NCBI GenBank assembly: GCA_963727625.1
Contig: CAVSHR010000004.1
Coordinates: 224,001-288,000, forward strand
Direction of reading: 5' to 3'
Origin: an uncultured delta proteobacterium
GTDB lineage: Bacteria > Desulfobacterota > Binatia > UBA9968
Length of the DNA stretch: 64,000 nt
Below the pieces are notes generated by a model. It searched no databases and was not told the DNA's origin. It saw only the letters and a list, made by a program, of their open reading frames with translations. Within the stretch, counting starts at the first letter, position 1, and each line of letters begins with the position of its first letter. Positions 1 through 12,047 of the stretch are shown piece by piece. The position numbers and the translations under genes are program-made.

Positions 1-2
1 AT

Positions 3-272
3 AAAGTGAGCTTTGCCCGGCTGCTCGAAGCGATTGCACAAGCCCACGATGTGAAAAGCGAGGTATTGCTGCACGTCGGGCGGCAGCGTCGATGGGTGGC
101 CATGAGAGCGCAGCTGGTGTACCTGGCACGGCAACGGTGTGGACTGACGACGAAGGAACTAGGGCGGCGGCTGCATCGCGATGCGTCCATGATCAGCCGT
201 CTCTATGCACGGTACGAGACGCATCGGGACGAGCCGACCGAGAAGAGACTCGCACGAATGTTGGCTAAATAG
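3..272 (+). mobile_element. 3' part of a probable IS200/RAYT-like (Y1) transposase with C-terminal DnaA_C-like HTH; runs in from the window edge
   Basis: Frame is open at the window start. LVYLARQRCGLTTKELGRRLHRDASMISR resembles the HTH tail of REP-associated tyrosine transposases. The stop is followed directly by TCAATACTCAGGCCTGACACC. The catalytic domain is outside the window. Confidence 0.55.
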
Positions 273-752
273 TCAATACTCAGGCCTGACACCAGATCCC
301 TCGCTGAGCGACTCTGATGCCCTCTTCACGGCATCGCCCGGATCATCGAAGCGCAGCGCGGTTTCATAAAGCTTATTGCCGCACTTCTCACAGGGCCAGA
401 TGAAGCGGTCCATTTCCGCCCTGCTGCGCTTGCGTTCAACGACGAAGGTCCAGGAACCGTCGGCGCGGCGGGGCGAATGCGGGACATGGCCCGGCATGAG
501 GAATAAATCTCCCGCCTTAAGGACCGCAAGATCCGGTTTGCCGCCGATAAAATAATGCAAGTTGAGCTCGCCTTCGAGCTGATAAAAAATTTCGTCGCCG
601 GGGTTGAGGTGAAAATCTTTGCGCCGGTTGGGCCCGCGGGTAACGAAGGCGATGAAATCGGAATCCTGCCAGATCACCCGGCGCTGCCCCCAGCTGCCGC
701 GATTTTCATCGATCCAATTTTGCAAGTTAAAGCCTTTTAAATGTGGAAACAT
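273..752 (-). CDS. nbaC: 3-hydroxyanthranilate 3,4-dioxygenase-like cupin, C-terminally truncated
   Basis: GPNRRKDFHLNPGDEIFYQLEG, VPHSPRR and CEKCG motifs present; the second CxxC of the rubredoxin-like site is absent. Confidence 0.8.
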   Translation of the reverse strand: MFPHLKGFNLQNWIDENRGSWGQRRVIWQDSDFIAFVTRGPNRRKDFHLNPGDEIFYQLEGELNLHYFIGGKPDLAVLKAGDLFLMPGHVPHSPRRADGSWTFVVERKRSRAEMDRFIWPCEKCGNKLYETALRFDDPGDAVKRASESLSEGSGVRPEY

Positions 753-818
753 AAGGCCTCCCTATCGTCGCCTCACTATAGAATTGCGCCGAGACGGGAA
801 TCAAGCTAAATCAGGCGA

Positions 819-1316
819 GTGTTCACGGGCAAAAATCAACGTCTAAGCTTGAAGTCAGGGCATGTCGGTCTGATCTCCGATACCCATGGACTGGTGCGGC
901 CGGAGGCCTGCGCCGCGCTGCAGGGCTCCGAGGTAATTCTTCACGCAGGCGATATCGGCAAACCGGAAGTTTTGATGTCGCTCAAATCAATCGCGCCGGT
1001 GATCGCGATTCGTGGCAATAATGATCGGGACCCTTGGGCAAAAATCTTCCCCGACGTTTTGAATCTGCGGATCAATGGCGTCAAGATTCACGTTATCCAC
1101 GACCTCCATGATATGGAGACCGATCCACTCGCCGGCGGCTTTAAATTGGTCGTAAGCGGCCACTCGCACAAGCCGAACGTGATCAAAAGAGCGGGAGTTC
1201 TCTTCATCAACCCCGGCAGCGCCGGCCCGCGCCGGTTCAAATTGCCGGTGACGGTAGCCCGGTTAAAGATTGACAGCAAAAATCTTAAGGCAAGAATCGT
1301 CGAATTAAAGATTTAG
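819..1316 (+). CDS. YfcE-family metallophosphoesterase
   Basis: SDTH, HAGD, GNND, SGHSH and INPGS motifs. Confidence 0.9.
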   Translation: MFTGKNQRLSLKSGHVGLISDTHGLVRPEACAALQGSEVILHAGDIGKPEVLMSLKSIAPVIAIRGNNDRDPWAKIFPDVLNLRINGVKIHVIHDLHDMETDPLAGGFKLVVSGHSHKPNVIKRAGVLFINPGSAGPRRFKLPVTVARLKIDSKNLKARIVELKI

Positions 1317-1366
1317 GCGAACTTTATTGACTTTGATTGCGTCCCACGATAATTAATCAAGAGAAA

Positions 1367-1399
1367 CCTTTTAACCCGATCCTGTGAGATTGGAAAAGG
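1367..1399 (+). promoter_or_regulatory. PyrR-binding RNA stem-loop (pyr attenuator)
   Basis: CCTTTT-AAC-CCGATC-CTGTGA-GATTGG-AAAAGG fits the PyrR site pattern (CUUUAA...UCCNGNGAG), directly upstream of pyrR. Confidence 0.8.
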
Positions 1400-1437
1400 C
1401 TCCATGAAAAATCTAATTCGACAAATAATTTGTGCTC

Positions 1438-1473
1438 AAAGACCCTCTCGGTAGGCCGGGAGGGTCTTTTTTT
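1438..1473 (+). terminator. Intrinsic terminator of the pyr leader
   Basis: AAAGACCCTCTCGG-TAGG-CCGGGAGGGTCTTT hairpin followed by a T run. Confidence 0.8.
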
Positions 1474-1477
1474 ATCC

Positions 1478-2035
1478 ATGGTGGACGAAAAACAAATCGT
1501 ATTGGAGCAATCTGAACTGGGCCGGGCGATCGGCCGGATGGCGCATGAGATCATTGAAAAGTGTGTTGATCCGGACCAACTGGCGTTGATCGGCATTCGC
1601 TCGCGGGGCGTTCATCTGGCACGACGGCTGGCGCGGCGCATCGGCGAGCTGGGTAAACCGATGCCGCCGGTAGGCGTCATCGACGTGACACCGTTTCGCG
1701 ACGATCGGGCGCAGGGCGAAACCGCCGCTCCAGCTACCGGCGTCGAGATCTCGACGCCGGTGGATGAAAAGACCGTGGTCTTGATCGACGACGTGATCTA
1801 TCGAGGCCGTACCGTTCGCGCCGCAATGGAGGCAATCGAACGATTGGGCCAGCCCAAGCGGATTTGCGTCGCCGTGTTGATCGACCGCGGCGCCCGGGAG
1901 CTGCCGATCCGCGCTGATATCGTCGGCAAGAATCTCGACGCCGGCGACGGCTATCGGGTGAACGTGCGTTTACAAGAAGTGGACGGCATCGATCAAGTAA
2001 CGTTGTCGAATTGGCAAGGGCAAAGCGGAAGTTAA
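1478..2035 (+). CDS. pyrR: Pyr operon attenuation regulator / uracil PRTase
   Basis: RAIGRMAHEIIE, LIDDVIYRGRTVRAA and LIDRGARELPIRADIVGKN. ATG at 1478 follows GGGAGG. Confidence 0.9.
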   Translation: MVDEKQIVLEQSELGRAIGRMAHEIIEKCVDPDQLALIGIRSRGVHLARRLARRIGELGKPMPPVGVIDVTPFRDDRAQGETAAPATGVEISTPVDEKTVVLIDDVIYRGRTVRAAMEAIERLGQPKRICVAVLIDRGARELPIRADIVGKNLDAGDGYRVNVRLQEVDGIDQVTLSNWQGQSGS

Positions 2036-2052
2036 ATCGAGAATCTAAAGCG

Positions 2053-4002
2053 ATGCGCAGTCTTATTTCCATCGCCGATTTGACCAACGACGAAATTGAA
2101 GAAATTTTTTCGTTGGCGGACAACGCCGATCAATTGCGCGCGGCCAAGGCCGCCAGCGGGCAGATCATGGCGACACTTTTTTACGAGCCGAGCACGCGGA
2201 CCCGCTTATCTTTCGAGTCGGCGATGCAACGCTTGGGCGGTTCCGTGATCAGCTGTTCGGATATGAAAGCTTCGTCCACCGCCAAGGGTGAAACGGTTGC
2301 GGATACCGCGAAGGTGGTTTCAAGTTACGCCGATGTTTTGGTGGTGCGCCACAACTGGGACGGCGCGGTCCAGGCGATGGCTGAACATGCCGACGTGCCG
2401 GTGATCAACGCCGGGGATGGCGGCCATGAGCATCCGACACAGACTTTGTGCGATCTGTATACCTTGCGCAAGGAAAAAGGCGCGCTTAAAGGACTCACCG
2501 TGGTGGTATGCGGTGATCTCAAAAACGGCCGGACGATCCATTCGCTGGTGTTTGCCCTAGCGCGCTTCGGCGCCAACGTGGTTGCGTTAGCGGCTAACGG
2601 TATGGCGTTGCCGCAGTATGTCATCGAACGATTGGAGCGGGAGTATGACTACTCTCTGGCGCCGATGGCATCGGACGATCTGAGTGCCGTGGTGACGGAG
2701 ACCGACGCGCTTTATCTGACGCCCAAACAGCCGCACCAGCTCGCGCTTTTTACTCAGGTGGATCAGGTGATTCAGTCGCGCTTAAATAGCATAGCTAGCG
2801 GCTTGCGCTACGACGCCTTTTACATGACTCGCAAGCAAAAGGAGCGCATGAAGGAGGGCACCACCGACAGCAGTTACCCGACCATCGGCGCGAAATTTCT
2901 GCGCGAGCAGCGTTTTCAAGACACCGTGGTGATGCATCCGCTGCCGCGAGTCGACGAGCTTTCGCCGGAAGTTGATAAAGACCGGCGCGGCATCTATTTC
3001 AAGCAGGCCGCCTACGGCGTGCCGGTGCGCATGGCCTTGCTCAAGTTTCTCTTCGATCGGCGTGAGGAGAGACCGAGCGTTAAAAATAGCCGTGCCACCT
3101 CGTACGAAAGCCCGGATCCGATCGGCCCGTTATGCCGCAATCCGAATTGTGTGACGCTCAAGGAGCCGGCGTCGAGCGCCGAGCGCTTCGAGATCCTCAC
3201 GCTCGGCCAAGCCGATGCGTTGATTTTGGCCTGCGCTTATTGCGATCATCGCTTTAAAATCCAGATTGCCGGCAACGCCAAGTTAAAGCGCTACGGGGCT
3301 TTCGATGCCGCTCTGGCGCCGGCCCTCGGTGAATGGCTCAAAGACGGCGAGTTGGCGCTGTTCGACTCGATCAAGAAAGCCGAAGAGTTGGGTTACGAGC
3401 CTTTCAAAAGCGGGCCGCAACGGGTACTGATGGGCGGCGGCGAGATTCAAAGCGCTTTGGCGGAAATGAGCGGGCAGATCTTGCGCGATTGCCGCGACCC
3501 GGATCGTTTGCTGATTCTCGGCGTGCGCAGCGTCGGCTCCTATTTAGCGCAGCGCCTCGCCGCGGAAATTGAGAAGCGGGACCAGCGCAAGCCGGAATTG
3601 GCCGAAATCGAGATCTACGGCTCGGGAGATGGAATCCGTAGACTATCGCCGAGCGATCCGGAAGCGCCGGCGCTGAATTTGAAAGACCGCGAGATCATTC
3701 TCGTCGACGACGTTATCTATACCGGTCGAACGGTCAAGAGCGCGCTGAACATTATTTTTCGCCTCGGACGGCCCCATTCGGTGCGGCTCGCGGTGTTGAT
3801 TGACCGCGGCCACCGCGAAGTGCCGGTGAAGCCCAATTATGTCGGTAAACATATTCCCAGCGCCGAGCAGGATCGCGTGCGCGTCAAGTTGCGTGAGATC
3901 GATCCTGAAAAGAGCGATCAAGCGGTCATCTATTCGATCATCAAGCCGGGCGAAGAATCGCACCGGCTGGCGCGCAAACCGGATCTGAGTGCGACCAAGT
4001 AG
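2053..4002 (+). CDS. pyrB: Aspartate carbamoyltransferase catalytic chain fused to a PyrI-like Zn domain and a C-terminal PyrR-like PRTase domain
   Basis: [21 protein letters not shown] and HPLPR motifs; then CRNPNC...CAYC; then [11 protein letters not shown] and [10 protein letters not shown], all in one frame. Confidence 0.9.
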
Positions 4003-4006
4003 AGCT

Positions 4007-5173
4007 ATGAAAGCGATTTTAGCACTGGCCGATGGGCGAATCTTTGACGGCTTGTCATTCGGCGCCGTCGGCGAGACGGTCGGCGAGGTTGTTTTCAACA
4101 CCAGCATGACCGGTTACCAAGAGATTCTCACCGATCCATCCTACGAAGGCCAACTGGTGGCCATGACCTATCCACAGATCGGCAACGTCGGCGTCAATCC
4201 CGAGGACGTCGAGTCGCGCGGGCCGTTCATGAAAGGTTTTATCGTTAAGGAATACACGTCGCAGCCAAGCAACTGGCGCGCTACACAACCGCTCCATTCA
4301 TACATGGAAGTCAATGGCGTCGTCGGCATCCAAGGCGTCGACACGCGCTCTTTGGTGCGCCACCTACGCGATCATGGCGCCCAAGAAGCGGCGATTTCGA
4401 CGGTGACGGAAAATCCCGAAAAGCTTGTCGCCAAAGCCAAAGCTTCGCCGGGACTTATCGGCAAAGATCTCGTGCGTAATGTGACCTGCGCCGAAGCCTA
4501 TGATTGGAATCAAGGCGGATGGCAGCTGGAAGGCGGCTACAAAGAACGGGACGGAGCAAAACCGGCAGGAAAGCGCAGAGGCAAGGGCAGCTTTATCTCG
4601 CCGGCGTATTTCGTCGTCGCCTATGACTACGGCATAAAGTACAACATCCTGCGCAAACTCGCCGAGGCCGGCTGCCGTGTCAAAGTGGTGCCCGCTGCCA
4701 CTCCGGCCGAGGATGTTTTGGCAATGAAGCCGGATGGAATCTTTCTTTCCAACGGCCCCGGCGATCCTGATGCCGTGCCGTACGCCAAGGAAAACGTCGA
4801 AAAGCTGATCGGCAAAAAGCCAATCTTCGGCATCTGCCTGGGTCATCAGATTATGGGGCTCGCGCTCGGCGGCAAGACATACAAGCTCAAGTTCGGCCAC
4901 CACGGTGCCAATCAACCGGTGATGGATTTAACCACGCGCAAAGTCGAGGTCACCTCGCAGAATCACGGTTTCGCGGTAGATGCCGATTCACTCAAAGGCG
5001 CCGTGGAAATCACGCACTTGAATTTGAACGACAACACCGTCGAGGGGCTGGAGCATCGCGAGCTGCCGATCTTTTCGGTGCAGTATCATCCGGAATCATC
5101 GCCCGGGCCGCATGACGCCGATTACCTGTTCAAGCGATTTACCGACCTAATGGCAAAACAAAAGAGCACGTAA
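4007..5173 (+). CDS. carA: Carbamoyl-phosphate synthase small subunit
   Basis: [34 protein letters not shown] and QYHPE motifs. Confidence 0.97.
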
Positions 5174-5179
5174 GGATCC

Positions 5180-8419
<3,240 letters not shown>

Positions 8420-8566
8420 AGCGCCCGAATGCTGGCGCAGAGAATGAAAAAAAATGAGCGGGCTCTGGCGCGTCTTGACGAACGCAGCGTCGTAATCCCA
8501 GAGAGCAGTTGCGTCCCATGCGCCCGGGAGTTCAGCAAATAAAATCTCCACGTCAACGGCCTTGTC

Positions 8567-10771
8567 TTGAAACCCGCCGGATCGTCGCCAAGAGTTAATC
8601 GGCCCAGCGAAATCCCATCAGCCGGCACAAGCCGGCGGCGGCGCGTCCTGGATGCGCCGATTCAATTTCTCAAGGGTGTCGGCCCCAAGCGGGCCGCGCA
8701 GCTGGAAACGTTTGGCCTCAAAACCATCGAGGATCTGCTCTATCATCTGCCGTTTCGCTATGAGGATCGCCGCCAGATCAAAAAGCTCGCGGTCGCATTG
8801 CCGGGTGAAGAAGCGAGCTTTATCGGCCGCCTGATCGCGCTGCAGAACCGGTATATTCCGCGCCGGCACAGCCAGATGTTGCTCGGCGCCCTGCAGGACG
8901 ACAGTGGGAGTATCGACCTGGTCTGGTATCGCGCGCCCAAGTTCCTAGTCGACGGCCTGGTCAAAGGCCAGATCCTGTTGGTGCATGGCAAAGTAGAGAT
9001 CGGGCTCCATGGGCACCCGCGTCTCAGTCATCCGGATTTTGAAGTGATCGATAGCGAAGACGCCGCCCCATTGCAGCGTATCCTGCCGGTTTATATCCAT
9101 CCGGCCGGCCTTTCCTTGACCTGGCTGCGCGGCTTGATGGGGCAGGCGTTGCAAGAATATCGCGACGACGTGGCGGATTGTCTGCCTGCCGAGGTCAAAC
9201 GGCGCCAGGGCTTGATGCCCATGCGCCAAGCTCTGGCGCAGCTGCACGAGCCGGATTCGGATATTGAAATCGAGTCGTTGAACGATTTCTCCTCGGCGGC
9301 CCATCGCACGATAATCTTCGACGAGCTTTTTTATCTCCAGCTCGGCCTGGGATTGAGAAAACGGGCGCGCTCCAACAGCGCGGCGGTTCGCTTGTCTCCT
9401 CGCGGCGCCAAGCTGGCAGAGCGCATGATCGCATTGTTGCCGTTCAAGTTGACCGGCGCCCAGGAGCGTGTGCTCAGCGAAATTTGCGCCGACATGGCCG
9501 GCGACCGGCCCATGCAGCGCCTGGTCCAAGGCGATGTCGGCTCGGGGAAAACCATGGTGGCCTGGTTCGCGTCGCTCGCCGCCATCGAGCACGGCTGCCA
9601 AGCCCTGTGGATGGCGCCCACCGAGCTCCTCGCCGAGCAGCACTACCGCAACTTAAAACCGTTCGCCGACGAATTAAAAATTCCCTCGGCGCTGCTGACG
9701 GCCGCGACTCCGGCCAAAGAAAAAAGATCTTTACTGCAGGCCATCGAGCAAGGCGACGTCGCCTTTGTCGTCGGTACCCACGCCCTGATCCAGCAGGAAG
9801 TGCGCGCGCCGCGCATGGGCTTGGGTGTCATCGACGAGCAGCATCGCTTCGGAGTCCTGCAGCGCCTGTCGTTGCAGCGCTTGGTAAGCGGTACGAATGC
9901 GCCGTCGCCGTTGAGCGGACAGCCGCATATGCTGCTGATGAGCGCGACGCCGATTCCGCGCAGCCTCGCCATGGTGCTCTACGGCGACATGGAAGTCTCT
10001 TTCATCGATGAAATGCCGCCGGGCCGGACGCCGGTGCAGACCCTGGTATTCAACGAACGCGAGCGGCGCCAGGCGTACGGCCTTGTGCTCGAACAGCTAA
10101 AGCATCGCCATCAGGCCTTCGTGGTCTTGCCGCTGGTGGAAGCCTCCGAACAACTGCAGCAGGTGCGCGACGCCACGCAGATGGCTGAGAAGATGGGCCA
10201 GACGCTGTTTAAAGACTTCGGCATAGGACTGGTGCACGGTCGACTAAAGGCCGAGGAGCGCGACGAAATCATGCGTGCTTTTCGCGACGGCAAGCTGGGA
10301 ATTCTGGTTGCCACCACGGTCATCGAAGTTGGCATCGATATTCCCAACGCCACCGTCATGGTGGTCGAGCATGCCGAGCGCTTCGGTTTGGCGCAATTGC
10401 ACCAACTGCGCGGCCGGGTCGGACGCGGCAAGGCGCCCGGTTATTGCTTGTTGATCAACCGCGGCGCGGCAAACCCGTTGGCTAGCGCGCGCCTGCACGC
10501 CATGGAAAAGGAGCATGACGGGTTCAAGATCGCCGAGGCGGATCTCAGGCTGCGAGGCGCGGGAGAATTACTCGGCACGCGCCAGTCCGGGCTGGCGGAT
10601 TTTCACCTGGCGAGTCTGGCGCGCGACGGCCATTTGCTCACCGAAGCGCGCAAAGAAGCTCTAGCCTGGCTCGAAGGGGACCCGCGCTTGGCGCGGCCGG
10701 AGTCAGCGGGGATGAAAGAACTGTTGCGCCATCGATGGGGCGCGTGCTTACAGCTGGGTGCGGTGGTTTAG
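8567..10771 (+). CDS. recG: ATP-dependent DNA helicase RecG (start uncertain)
   Basis: LKGVGPKRA, QGDVGSGKT, DEQHRFG, SATPIPRSL and QLRGRVGRG motifs. Confidence 0.95.
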   Translation: MKPAGSSPRVNRPSEIPSAGTSRRRRVLDAPIQFLKGVGPKRAAQLETFGLKTIEDLLYHLPFRYEDRRQIKKLAVALPGEEASFIGRLIALQNRYIPRRHSQMLLGALQDDSGSIDLVWYRAPKFLVDGLVKGQILLVHGKVEIGLHGHPRLSHPDFEVIDSEDAAPLQRILPVYIHPAGLSLTWLRGLMGQALQEYRDDVADCLPAEVKRRQGLMPMRQALAQLHEPDSDIEIESLNDFSSAAHRTIIFDELFYLQLGLGLRKRARSNSAAVRLSPRGAKLAERMIALLPFKLTGAQERVLSEICADMAGDRPMQRLVQGDVGSGKTMVAWFASLAAIEHGCQALWMAPTELLAEQHYRNLKPFADELKIPSALLTAATPAKEKRSLLQAIEQGDVAFVVGTHALIQQEVRAPRMGLGVIDEQHRFGVLQRLSLQRLVSGTNAPSPLSGQPHMLLMSATPIPRSLAMVLYGDMEVSFIDEMPPGRTPVQTLVFNERERRQAYGLVLEQLKHRHQAFVVLPLVEASEQLQQVRDATQMAEKMGQTLFKDFGIGLVHGRLKAEERDEIMRAFRDGKLGILVATTVIEVGIDIPNATVMVVEHAERFGLAQLHQLRGRVGRGKAPGYCLLINRGAANPLASARLHAMEKEHDGFKIAEADLRLRGAGELLGTRQSGLADFHLASLARDGHLLTEARKEALAWLEGDPRLARPESAGMKELLRHRWGACLQLGAVV

Positions 10772-10868
10772 CCAGGCCAGCCGAGAAGTGTTTAGTTGCA
10801 CCGATTCTGACGATAGCTTATAAAAAGAGGTTGTAATATTGCTTCGAGAAAGGATCGGGTAGCGACGC

Positions 10869-12047
10869 GTGGAATTTCAGCGCATCAAGCGGCTGCCGCC
10901 CTACGTCTTCAGCATCATCGACGGCATGAAGATGGAGGCCAGGCATCGGGGTGAGGACATCGTCGATTTCGGTATGGGCAATCCCGATCTACCCACGCCG
11001 CCGCATGTGGTCGCCAAGCTGGTCGAGGCGGCAAGCAAACCGCAGAACCACCGCTATTCGGTCTCGCGCGGTATCTACAAGCTGCGTCTAGCGATCGTCG
11101 GTTGGTACAAACGGCGTTACAACGTGGATCTCGATCCCGACAGCGAGGCTATCGTTACGATCGGCGCCAAAGAGGGCATCTCCCACTTGGCCTGGGCGAC
11201 CATCGATCCCGGCGACGTGGTGCTCTGCCCCAGCCCGACCTATCCAATTCACCAATATGCCGTGGTGCTGGCGGGCGGCGATTTGCGCTGCATCCCGCTG
11301 ACTACCAGCGAAGCCTTCTTCGGCCATCTCGAAGAAGCGATCCGCCAGACTTGGCCTAAGCCGAAGATGCTGATCATCAGCTTTCCCCATAACCCGACCA
11401 CAGAAGTGGTCGACCTCGGATTTTTCGAACGAGTCGTCAAGACTGCCCAGGAACATGGGTTTCTTGTGATTCACGACCTCGCCTACGCCGATCTGACCTT
11501 CGACGGTTATCAGGCACCGAGCTTTCTGCAGGTGCCGGGCGCCAAGGATGTCGGCGTGGAATTTTTCTCGCTCTCGAAGAGTTACAACATGCCCGGCTGG
11601 CGCGTCGGTTTTTGCGTCGGCAACAAGGAAGTAATCCATGCCCTGGCGCGCATCAAGAGCTATCTCGATTACGGGATTTTTCAGCCGATTCAGATTGCCG
11701 CCATACAGGCTCTGAATGGACCGCAGGATTGCGTCGAGGAAATCCGCCTGGTGTACGAAAACCGGCGCGACTCCCTGATCGAAGGTCTCGAACGCGCGGG
11801 TTGGCATGTTCCCAAGCCTAAGGGGACGATGTTCGTCTGGGCCGAGATTCCCGAGCCGGCGAAGAAAATGGGCTCGGTGGAGTTTGCCAAATATTTGCTG
11901 CAAGAGGCTCAGGTTGCGGTATCGCCGGGAATCGGCTTCGGCCAATACGGCGACGAGCATGTACGCTTCGCCTTGATTGAAAACGAGCACCGCACCAAGC
12001 AGGCGGTGCGCAAAATCAAAAAGGCGCTGGGAAAACTGCTCGATTAG
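10869..12047 (+). CDS. alaC: Class I/II PLP aminotransferase (AlaC-like)
   Basis: [18 protein letters not shown] and [14 protein letters not shown]; upstream of hom as in alaC-hom clusters. Confidence 0.8.

Follow-up and report, generated by a model that had tools for sequence, protein, structure and literature searches.

Three classes of bacterial aspartate transcarbamoylases (ATCases) are distinguished: class A with DHOase, class B with PyrI, and class C, which consists of bare trimers. The class B holoenzyme of Escherichia coli and archaea is built from six PyrB catalytic and six PyrI regulatory chains, with regulatory dimers that bridge two catalytic trimers and with control by CTP/ATP, and each PyrI chain carries its effector domain N-terminal to the zinc domain. 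A second system that has to be considered here is PyrR, which a review describes as a UPRTase that acts as a UMP-bound dimer and binds UMP/UTP and GMP (PMC7430163).

In the window (the whole 64,000-nt stretch of DNA that was analyzed), which derives from an uncultured Binatia bacterium of soil and sediment, one gene combines parts of both systems (Table 1). The open frame spans positions 2011..4002 (+), and translation from the ATG at 2053 gives a protein without internal stops, whose start methionine is the same in the aligned relatives. In Pfam, the fusion protein matches OTCace_N (residues 2–139, 171.8 bits, cut-off 29.9), OTCace (residues 146–332, 74.3 bits, cut-off 29.4), PyrI_C (PF02748; residues 361–403, 27.4 bits, cut-off 23.4, E 2.9e-6), and Pribosyltran (residues 465–599, 58.4 bits, cut-off 26.3). 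The NCBIfam matches are asp_carb_tr (TIGR00670; 296.8 bits, cut-off 236.95), PyrB (NF002032; 284.9 bits, cut-off 263), and, narrowly above its cut-off of 138, PyrR (NF003549; residues 457–620, 145.2 bits). The ATCase, PyrI-type zinc, and PyrR domains that the original prediction had placed in one frame thus all score above curated cut-offs, and the observation of an ATCase–zinc–PyrR fusion is confirmed. Features that the original prediction did not mention are the free pyrR and PyrR-binding RNA upstream, the connector, the insertion in the aspartate domain, the degeneracy of the fused PyrR domain, and a PyrR-less sister family. The domain search proposed along with it reveals PyrI_C similarity, and the ORF is unsplit in the window and in most relatives. 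The AF2 model of the fusion protein is of moderate quality (pLDDT 77, pTM 0.66). Among sequencing runs, no RNA run was listed as containing this DNA, and the best DNA run contained 0.13 of the sampled words.

A literature search at listing level found no paper on an ATCase–PyrR or ATCase–zinc-domain fusion. The annotated bifunctional PyrB/PyrI fusion (NF009916, 525 aa) likewise has catalytic and regulatory parts on one chain; the fusion protein does not belong to this family, for which it reaches 90.5 bits (cut-off 800) with the ATCase part only. All database records inspected name the proteins described here only as ATCase catalytic subunit.

Table 1. Features of the pyr locus, with positions counted from the first nucleotide of the window
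Feature	Position	Strand	Details
Sigma-70-like promoter candidate	1270..1297	+	TTGACA, 16 nt spacer, AAGAAT; 10/12 matches
PyrR-binding attenuator RNA (Rfam RF00515)	1363..1475	+	57.5 bits over the full model (1-115), gathering threshold 54
Free canonical pyrR	1478..2035	+	185 aa from ATG at 1478; NF003549 194.1 bits, cut-off 138
Fusion gene	2053..4002	+	649 aa plus stop codon; ORF, Pfam, NCBIfam, alignment of relatives
ATCase catalytic domain, E. coli/archaeal type	2053..3063	+	residues 1-337; fold, sequence, full active-site motif set
Family-specific insertion in aspartate domain	2728..2811	+	residues 226-253; alignments of relatives
PyrI_C-type zinc domain	3097..3264	+	residues 349-404; Cys361, Cys366, Cys394, Cys397; Pfam, family profile
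Connector module	3265..3408	+	residues 405-452, ~48 aa, strand-helix-strand-helix; alignment, AF2
Degenerate PyrR-type PRTase domain	3409..3939	+	residues 453-629; NF003549, PyrR structures
carA	3989..5173	+	listed from GTG at 3989; CPSase_sm_chain 180 bits, GATase 195.6 bits
carB	5180..8419	+	1079 aa; name from sequence and synteny

The catalytic domain is complete and belongs to the PyrI-associated type known from E. coli and archaea, in keeping with a zinc domain that serves as a docking piece. Its fold aligns with the E. coli catalytic chain (PDB code 1i5o_A) over 294 of 310 residues (Z 34.3, rmsd 2.1), and its sequence matches the Methanocaldococcus jannaschii enzyme (PDB code 2rgw) with an E value of 7e-72. 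Like the class B chains of the same catalytic subtype, to which it is 40–43% identical (Z 33–34), it carries the HPLPR motif. The motifs of ATCase that bind carbamoyl phosphate and aspartate are STRTR, HxxPTQ, TRxQ, and HPLPR, and none of the 38 aligned fusion proteins deviates at STRTR, Lys-78, Arg-99–His-100, His-127, Gln-130, Arg-160, Arg-260, Gln-262, or HPLPR. The genome has two OTCace_N matches, the second of which lies elsewhere, on contig C8, and the fusion protein is the sole ATCase found in it.

In contrast to class B enzymes, the fusion protein possesses an additional insertion in the aspartate domain. This insertion comes after the sequence DALYLTP, a degenerate duplicate of the motif (12 protein letters, not shown) that forms the substrate-binding strand; HMMER places both copies on the same target strand. 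The insertion is 28–36 aa long and occurs in all 38 fusion proteins as well as in a PyrR-less sister family (see below), whereas plain pyrB in relatives from the class lacks it. The AF2 model has a pLDDT below 50 at residues 226–244, which lie within the insertion.

Whereas class B enzymes carry their zinc domain on separate regulatory chains, the fusion protein has it on the C terminus of the catalytic domain, followed by the connector and the PyrR-type domain. The same four cysteines as in PyrI_C are present, and the two motifs CRNPNC (Cys-361 and Cys-366; 3133–3150) and CAYC (Cys-394 and Cys-397; 3232–3243) lie exactly where the original prediction had located them. All four cysteines, the asparagine between the first pair, and a following glutamate are invariant in 38 of 38 fusion proteins, and together with the score above the PyrI_C cut-off this bears out the proposal that the docking zinc domain is kept. 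A family profile of this domain retrieves 12 distinct PyrI regulatory-chain sequences from the PDB (E 6.9e-6 to 9e-3), including residues 108–150 of E. coli 1d09_B, and no non-PyrI match below E 0.3. In Foldseek, ranks 1–18 are all ATCase regulatory chains, with a best E value of just 0.12, and the comparison with 2be7_D (VIA) yields a Z of 3.6 over 48 aligned residues (29% identity); the pLDDT of the model is 72 in this part.

The effector domain of PyrI, in turn, is missing, as had been supposed. PF01948 was found neither in the own genome, which is 98.45% complete, nor in any of 151 genomes of the class, the search being positive in seven of 14 reference genomes that served as control. The PyrI_C domain of the fusion protein is also the sole PyrI_C in its genome. 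Unlike in class B, there is neither a separate regulatory chain nor a PyrI effector domain. The logic is likely shared, with the zinc domain as the docking piece and a second domain attached to it. Between these two parts of the fusion protein lies the connector, in which Trp-428, Leu-434, Phe-437, and Ala-443 are invariant among the fusion proteins and for which no matching Pfam family was found. It shows a weak resemblance to N-Ada (PDB code 1u8b_A; Z 5.1, VIA), and Ada_Zn_binding reaches 13.3 bits in the sister-family protein P0388, below the cut-off of 23; this Z value and one sub-cut-off Pfam match are too weak to assign an Ada fold.

The PyrR-type domain aligns with solved PyrR structures (E 3.8e-34), is 36% identical to the free PyrR of the window, and is followed by a disordered tail that reaches position 3999. 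With Bacillus-type PyrR, an attenuation protein and UPRTase, it shares the fold, the family, the DDV..TG.T loop, and DRGHR..P. In contrast to that protein, it sits on an enzyme, lacks YRDD, and in most relatives has lost the arginine of TGRT. The flexible YRDD loop is required for catalysis in type I PRTases; its arginine and both aspartates occur in 0 of 21 fused Binatia domains, compared with 21 of 21 free neighbors and 79–80 of 80 other PyrR proteins. Tryptophan stands in place of the TGRT arginine (e.g. SGWT) in 18 of the 21; the three exceptions are the window copy, which reads DDVIYTGRT at the phosphate loop, and those at loci L122 and L123. All 21 fused domains retain DDV, G, and T within the ribose-phosphate loop (DDV..TGRT) as well as DRGHR..P. 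Because YRDD is lost and the TGRT arginine mostly so, ligand binding of the PRPP or PyrR type cannot be assumed, and nucleotide binding by the fused domain may be weakened or lost. The proposed role of the PyrR fold as a UMP/PRPP/GMP sensor for ATCase is plausible.

A further difference to Bacillus-type PyrR concerns RNA. In the N-terminal helix of Bacillus subtilis PyrR, the RNA-binding residues are presumably Thr-18, Arg-19, His-22, and Arg-27. The fused domain of the window has alanine, glutamate, glycine, and aspartate at these positions, where the consensus of the fused domains is variable; the free neighbors keep Arg-19 in 21 of 21 and His-22 in 17 of 21 cases. In the tree, the fused domains form a clade on a long stem branch (0.43), and a quick tree does not unite them with the neighboring free PyrR as sister clades. 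Grouping all 24 fused domains in one clade is not rejected and even gives the better tree (p-AU 0.877).

A canonical PyrR and its RNA site are encoded separately, directly upstream of the fusion gene. The attenuator RNA ends in a terminator-like hairpin (1438–1469; 14-bp stem, then TTTTTAT) and is the only RF00515 site found within positions 1–12000 of the window. At the same place in relatives, RF00515 scores above gathering in two of 19 loci; in seven of eight re-scanned loci the score is below gathering (36.5–51.9 bits). The promoter candidate is weak evidence alone because one site was found and 1.2 are expected in shuffles. The free PyrR matches solved PyrR structures with an E value of 5e-47 and keeps YRDD (as FRDD), TGRT (as RGRT), Arg-19, and His-22. 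In the loci of all 20 relatives, a homologue of its gene immediately precedes the fusion gene, and the genome of the window encodes two canonical PyrR paralogues with YRDD. With a free pyrR upstream in every one of these loci and RF00515 in front of it, RNA-level control is already provided.

Downstream, the fusion gene is directly followed by carA, whose translation may actually begin at the in-frame ATG at 4007, and carB is 72–78% identical to the gene at the same position in relatives. The window contains no pyrC-like match, and a DHOase is encoded elsewhere in the genome. The original prediction had read the lack of pyrC between pyrB and carA as fitting an enzyme that is not built on a DHOase scaffold. 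This argument fails because 18 of 20 relatives carry a pyrC-like gene directly after the fusion gene, two of them confirmed by NCBIfam (388.6 and 380.9 bits, cut-off 279). A class A-type complex with DHOase can be neither demonstrated nor dismissed from the order of the genes.

The closest relatives of the fusion proteins in the tree form an apparently unstudied sister family of 885 proteins (∼447–491 aa, typically ∼467 aa) that consist of ATCase, zinc domain, and connector. Their MAG labels are Chloroflexota, Dehalococcoidia, and Planctomycetota, and they are annotated only as ATCase. The ATCase domain of these proteins is 52–58% identical to that of the fusion, and they share its insertion, its zinc domain (PyrI_C 30.8–42.7 bits), and its connector. 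In contrast to the fusion, they end exactly after the connector, without a PRTase domain. On the ATCase tree, a single clade of all three-domain proteins is not rejected (p-AU 0.123), and the PyrR domain may either have been gained in Binatia or lost in the sister clade.

We consider the chances about even that the only ATCase of this organism is a self-regulating single chain, in which the PyrR-derived domain couples nucleotide occupancy to activity. The tethered zinc domain would dock on the catalytic domain as in the holoenzyme of E. coli and archaea, and the PyrR-derived domain would stand in for the missing PyrI effector domain. Since PyrR is dimeric in solved structures, the PyrR-derived domain is expected to pair as PyrI effector domains do, and this pairing would link two catalytic trimers, so that the fused chains form a hexamer. 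A nucleotide in the remaining ribose-phosphate pocket would then be coupled to ATCase activity, and the PyrR-derived domain would act as a built-in regulatory and assembly module. UPRTase activity and RNA attenuation would be tasks of the canonical free PyrR, which is encoded upstream next to its RNA site; the fused domain itself probably no longer performs either.

A more specific version of this arrangement is tentative. It would amount to an additional class of ATCase organization, in which six fused chains would form the hexamer, PyrR-derived dimers would replace the PyrI effector dimers, and control by ATP/CTP would give way to another signal in the old PyrR pocket, e.g. uridine versus guanosine nucleotides; alternatively, pairing with the free PyrR might couple the state of the enzyme to attenuation.

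The PyrR-derived domain could instead be a pure assembly scaffold, i.e. a ligand-free pseudo-enzyme that holds or stabilizes the catalytic trimers, which we regard as rather improbable. Its model would be the Pseudomonas-type ATCase, in which an inactive DHOase-like PyrC′ acts as a scaffold. Two otherwise near-universal PyrR motifs have been lost (YRDD from 21 of 21 fused domains, the TGRT arginine from 18 of 21), and the fused clade has a long stem branch; both would suit such a scaffold. The 885 sister proteins point in the same direction, as they indicate that the ATCase–zinc–connector part works without a PyrR domain and that zinc domain and connector are sufficient alone. Against a ligand-free scaffold stand the ribose-phosphate loop residues DDV, G, and T together with DRGHR..P, whose invariance in 21 of 21 domains, across ∼40% overall identity, would be difficult to account for if selection did not act on a pocket.

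That the C-terminal domain is an active UPRTase, which would make the fusion a bifunctional enzyme coupling uracil salvage to de novo synthesis, appears quite unlikely. The catalytic YRDD loop is absent from all 21 Binatia fused domains, and the two canonical PyrR paralogues, which retain it, could supply the activity. In favor of a UPRTase, no Upp-type enzyme (PF14681) was found above cut-off in the own genome, the window copy has an unaltered DDVIYTGRT loop, and PyrR proteins have UPRTase activity according to the review cited above (PMC7430163).

We see very little room for a fused domain that takes part in the PyrR circuit, either by binding pyr mRNA or by pairing with the free PyrR and thereby linking attenuation to the state of the enzyme. 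The constant adjacency of the free pyrR (20 of 20 loci) and the 36% identity of the fused and free PyrR folds would suit such a partnership, and so would the dimeric working form of PyrR described in that review (PMC7430163). However, a single RF00515 site was found within positions 1–12000 of the window, and in the tree the fused domains and the free PyrR proteins do not group as sister clades. The replacement of the presumed RNA-binding residues in the fused domains argues against mRNA binding as well.

The original prediction also suggested a census of the architecture, and in genomes sampled from the same class the zinc–connector–PyrR part (threshold E ≤ 1e-45) was found in 166 of 401, mostly within open frames of ∼640–700 aa. 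Seven of the 166 fusion-bearing genomes are unpublished; without those, the count is 159 of 394. Among the best 120 metagenomic matches, 104 have a length of 621–665 aa and 16 are shorter than 600 aa. All 20 relatives' loci that were inspected contain the fused frame and the four cysteines, with 636–662 aa in 19 of them; at the remaining locus (L107), the frame is N-terminally shortened to 624 aa, and its start codon was not found. An assembly or frameshift artefact that joined separate pyrB, pyrI-like, and pyrR genes, for which one could cite the 16 short matches and truncated or frameshifted versions on other contigs (e.g. the 385-aa P0356 and P0360 on long contigs), is refuted by this conservation of an uninterrupted frame in 166 of 401 genomes and 19 of 20 loci, and the apparent short forms start inside the C-terminal helix of ATCase, which marks them as fragments.

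A stand-alone zinc–PyrR regulatory chain was rejected as well. The short matches P0121, P0126, P0130, P0147, P0175, and P0212 begin within the ATCase C-terminal helix or within the zinc domain and are fragments, and no zinc–PyrR part was found as a separate gene among the short matches examined. Although the fusion proteins have diverged to ∼40% identity across the class, the fusion is kept in 166 of 401 genomes, indicating that the whole chain is under selection. The ATCase–zinc–connector–PyrR chain is a conserved, unstudied way to build an ATCase.

ATCase is the classic model of allostery, and few bacterial forms of it are known. In a class of uncultured soil and sediment bacteria, the docking domain of PyrI is kept and a PyrR-derived domain is found where the effector domain would be, and a related, widespread sister family has no effector domain whatever. 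If the PyrR-derived domain senses nucleotides, nature would have swapped one domain of an allosteric machine for another. Studying it could then reveal how regulatory specificity can change with the zinc domain retained as the transmission piece, and how the fold of an RNA-binding regulator and enzyme is turned into a sensor domain.

The fusion gene occupies a single open frame and codes for 649 amino acids counted from its ATG, a start that the alignment shows to be common to the relatives. Pfam matched all four domains listed in the original prediction (OTCace_N, OTCace, PyrI_C, and Pribosyltran), and NCBIfam assigned the N-terminal part to ATCase (TIGR00670, 296.8 bits; cut-off 236.95) and the C-terminal part to PyrR, which confirms the triple-domain frame that had been claimed. 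The cysteine pairs CRNPNC and CAYC lie exactly where they had been placed.

Features of the fusion protein and of its surroundings in the window
Feature	Residues	Window position	Strand	Remarks
3-HAO-like gene		273-752	-	3-HAO 110.5 bits
Metallophos_2 gene		819-1316	+	114.2 bits
Promoter-like site		1270-1297		upstream of fusion gene
PyrR-binding attenuator RNA (Rfam RF00515)		1363-1475	+	57.5 bits, gathering 54
Free pyrR, canonical		1478-2035		NF003549 194.1 bits; E 5e-47 to solved PyrR structures
Open frame of fusion gene		2011..4002	+	ATG at 2053
OTCace_N	2-139			Pfam 171.8 bits
OTCace	146-332			Pfam 74.3 bits
Aspartate-domain insertion	226-253	2728-2811	+	behind degenerate strand-motif duplicate
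Zinc domain	349-404			PyrI_C type
CRNPNC		3133-3150		
PyrI_C	361-403			Pfam 27.4 bits, gathering 23.4
CAYC		3232-3243		
Connector	405-452	3265-3408	+	predicted strand-helix-strand-helix
PyrR-type domain	453-629			E 3.8e-34 to solved PyrR structures
PyrR (NF003549)	457-620			145.2 bits, cut-off 138
Pribosyltran	465-599			Pfam 58.4 bits

The catalytic domain (residues 1-337) superposes with the E. coli catalytic chain (Z 34.3, rmsd 2.1, 294 residues aligned). In sequence, it is closest to the ATCases of M. jannaschii, P. abyssi, and E. coli, the subtype that works with PyrI, and the ATCase active-site motifs are all invariant among 38/38 aligned proteins. The fusion protein is an intact ATCase and the sole one of its genome (6.6 Mb, 98.45% complete), where the only other carbamoyltransferase gene lies on another contig. 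Class relatives without the fusion possess a plain pyrB of the HPGP..NR type (32% identical) that adjoins pyrR. Every fusion protein carries an insertion in the aspartate domain, which was not found in solved ATCases or in the plain pyrB of class relatives. The insertion is preceded by DALYLTP, a degenerate duplicate of the true substrate-binding strand motif ([12 protein letters not shown]), and is modeled poorly (AF2 pLDDT below 50).

The zinc domain of PyrI is kept, as had been proposed, with four invariant cysteines, an invariant asparagine between the first pair, and an invariant glutamate that follows. Against the PDB, its family profile retrieved 12 PyrI regulatory-chain sequences at E 6.9e-6 to 9e-3, and no other hit fell below E 0.3; fold searches likewise placed PyrI chains alone on top, with weak matches (Foldseek best E 0.12; VIA Z 3.6). 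The predicted absence of the PyrI effector domain was borne out, as this domain was found neither in the own genome, where PyrI_C occurs in the fusion gene only, nor in any of 151 class genomes (PF01948). The connector matches no Pfam family and contains the invariant residues W428, L434, F437, and A443. It is free of cysteines and weakly Ada-like (VIA Z 5.1 to N-Ada, 1u8b_A); a second, separate weak hint of this kind is a Pfam Ada_Zn_binding match of 13.3 bits, under the cut-off, in the sister-family protein P0388.

The closest ATCase-domain relatives of unfused length (447-491 aa, 52-58% identity) comprise OTCace_N, OTCace, and PyrI_C, and no PRTase domain was found in them. They share the insertion, the zinc domain, and the connector with the fusion protein, and end right behind the connector. 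With the C-terminal part of this two-domain family as query, 885 proteins were found at E <= 1e-5 (911 candidates); the best 120 are almost all 466-473 aa long, and the named ones are labeled Dehalococcoidia or Chloroflexi. The database proteins P0345, P0351, P0370, P0388, and P0390 are members, annotated as ATCase only. This ∼467-aa ATCase-zinc-connector family is widespread, has no nucleotide-binding domain, and represents an ATCase form that is unstudied in its own right.

A quick tree was built from the shared part, with plain class pyrB as the root. In it, the three-domain proteins of Binatia form one clade (SH-aLRT 97) and the two-domain proteins another (SH-aLRT 91); P0133 and P0148, which are divergent, have three domains, and come from unplaced metagenome contigs, are basal on long branches. 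Neither a single clade of all three-domain proteins (p-AU 0.123) nor one of all fused PyrR domains (p-AU 0.877) was rejected, so the PyrR domain may have been gained once or lost once. A quick tree does not place the clade of fused PyrR domains as sister to the neighboring free PyrR.

Sequence identity between the fused PyrR domain and the free PyrR is 36%. We compared the motifs of 21 fused domains, their 21 free neighbors, and 80 other PyrR representatives.

Conservation of PyrR motifs in fused and free proteins
Motif	Fused	Free neighbors	Other PyrR
YRDD loop	0/21	21/21	79-80/80
Arg of TGRT	3/21 (window, loci L122 and L123); Trp in 18	21/21	80/80
DDV, G, T of TGRT loop	21/21	21/21	D, D, V, G 80/80; T 72/80
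D, R, G, P of DRGHR..P	21/21	21/21	77-80/80
H, second R of DRGHR..P	both 21/21	second R 16/21; H to E in 10	H 67/80
R19	replaced	21/21	60/80
H22	replaced	17/21	43/80

Judged from these motifs, the fused domain is degenerate; YRDD is still present in P0133 and P0148. The domain of the window carries A/E/G/D at T18/R19/H22/R27, which we take to be RNA-binding positions of PyrR. The residue roles reportedly go back to Savacool and Switzer 2002 and Chander et al. 2005.

We propose that, in the manner of class B enzymes, the catalytic domain serves as the docking site of the zinc domain, and that the PyrR-derived domain takes up the place in which a PyrI effector domain would operate, dimerizes, and passes on the binding of some nucleotide. 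Taken as a whole, this reading seems to us about evenly balanced between right and wrong. AF2 gave a model of moderate quality (pLDDT 77, pTM 0.66). The PyrR-derived domain retains its ribose-phosphate pocket in part and is devoid of the catalytic-loop and RNA-binding signatures of PyrR. The main alternative, a PyrR-derived domain that serves as a ligand-free assembly scaffold, is rather unlikely. According to a review (PMC7430163), PyrR is a UPRTase, and its UMP-bound dimer binds RNA, which is promoted by UMP/UTP and antagonized by GMP. No Upp-type UPRTase exceeds the cut-off in the own genome, yet an active UPRTase in a C-terminal domain devoid of YRDD is improbable.

A canonical PyrR with its own RNA site is encoded separately from the fusion. 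The RF00515 element terminates in a 14-bp terminator hairpin and a T run just ahead of the free pyrR; the pyr operon thus has classic PyrR attenuation, in a lineage far from Bacillus. The free pyrR lies immediately 5' of the fusion gene in 20/20 loci of relatives. RF00515 exceeds gathering in 2/19 of these loci and is the sole Rfam match at E <= 1 in 7/8 re-scanned ones, there below gathering (36.5-51.9 bits) and at a constant place and strand. That the fused domain is linked to this PyrR/RNA circuit is slightly less probable still than UPRTase activity; the fusion gene adjoins the free pyrR throughout, and the fused domain has the RNA-binding positions replaced.

Downstream of the fusion gene follow carA and carB. 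The original prediction had argued from a missing pyrC in between that the enzyme is not built on a DHOase scaffold; this argument falls, because a pyrC-like gene occupies that place in 18/20 loci of relatives (two confirmed at 388.6 and 380.9 bits) and is absent after the fusion gene only in the window and two loci of family f87. The own genome encodes a DHOase elsewhere (342.8 bits). It also holds a third PyrR paralogue (G000:C2, L129:1363-1914, minus strand, 183 aa) with YRDD and TGRT kept, next to a 409-aa ORF that by eye only is M20-type amidohydrolase-like. The 3-hydroxyanthranilate 3,4-dioxygenase-like gene and the Metallophos_2 phosphoesterase gene in the window appear to lie outside the pyr operon.

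The fusion gene is real and conserved. An architecture census, suggested with the original prediction, found the zinc-connector-PyrR part at E <= 1e-45 in 166/401 genomes sampled from the class, for the most part within open frames about 640-700 aa long; seven of the 166 genomes are unpublished (G536, G586, G403, G567, G282, G408, and G539), and 159/394 remain when these are excluded. The unpublished genomes enter into none of the other conclusions. The fusion occurs in families f1 (53/63 genomes), f6 (89/94), f91 (18/19), f87 (4/4), and f89 (1/1), and was not found in the other class families searched (e.g. f86 0/27, f4 0/55, f5 0/25, f94 0/26). In G224, an f86 genome of the same order (one contig, 99% complete), the sole carbamoyltransferase match to TIGR00670 is under the cut-off (145.7 bits); f86 may lack a recognizable ATCase or have a divergent one. 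Among the matches listed for a phylum sample of 201 genomes, the zinc part was reached only by the own genome and one other class genome. The zinc-connector module was confirmed in 214/267 candidate species representatives, mostly labeled "Candidatus Binatia" or the old "delta proteobacterium" and in a few cases Chloroflexota, Verrucomicrobiia, Udaeobacter, Limnocylindrales, or Acidiferrales.

A search that used the C-terminal 315 residues yielded 751 proteins at E <= 1e-3 (8000 candidates scored). Of the best 120, 104 measure 621-665 aa, and the 16 shorter ones include fragments from short contigs as well as shorter calls located on longer contigs. P0356 and P0360 (385 aa), on contigs of 195 kb and 897 kb, are f6-type fusion genes with the frame broken right behind the ATCase domain; the breaks are probably indel errors from long-read assembly rather than signs of a genuine short form. 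The fused frame with its four cysteines was present in 20/20 fetched loci from five families (636-662 aa in 19; shortened N-terminally to 624 aa in L107), and an artefactual fusion is next to inconceivable.

Our literature search, at the level of search results, turned up no publication that describes a fusion of this kind, and database names of the proteins read only "aspartate carbamoyltransferase catalytic subunit" or "PyrR." The protein is not a member of the annotated PyrB/PyrI fusion NF009916 (90.5 bits versus 800), and its C-terminal domain scores as a PyrR family member, although without the defining motifs of PyrR. It also stands outside class B because both a separate PyrI and the effector domain are missing. 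In its working, however, the fusion protein would be most like a class B ATCase.
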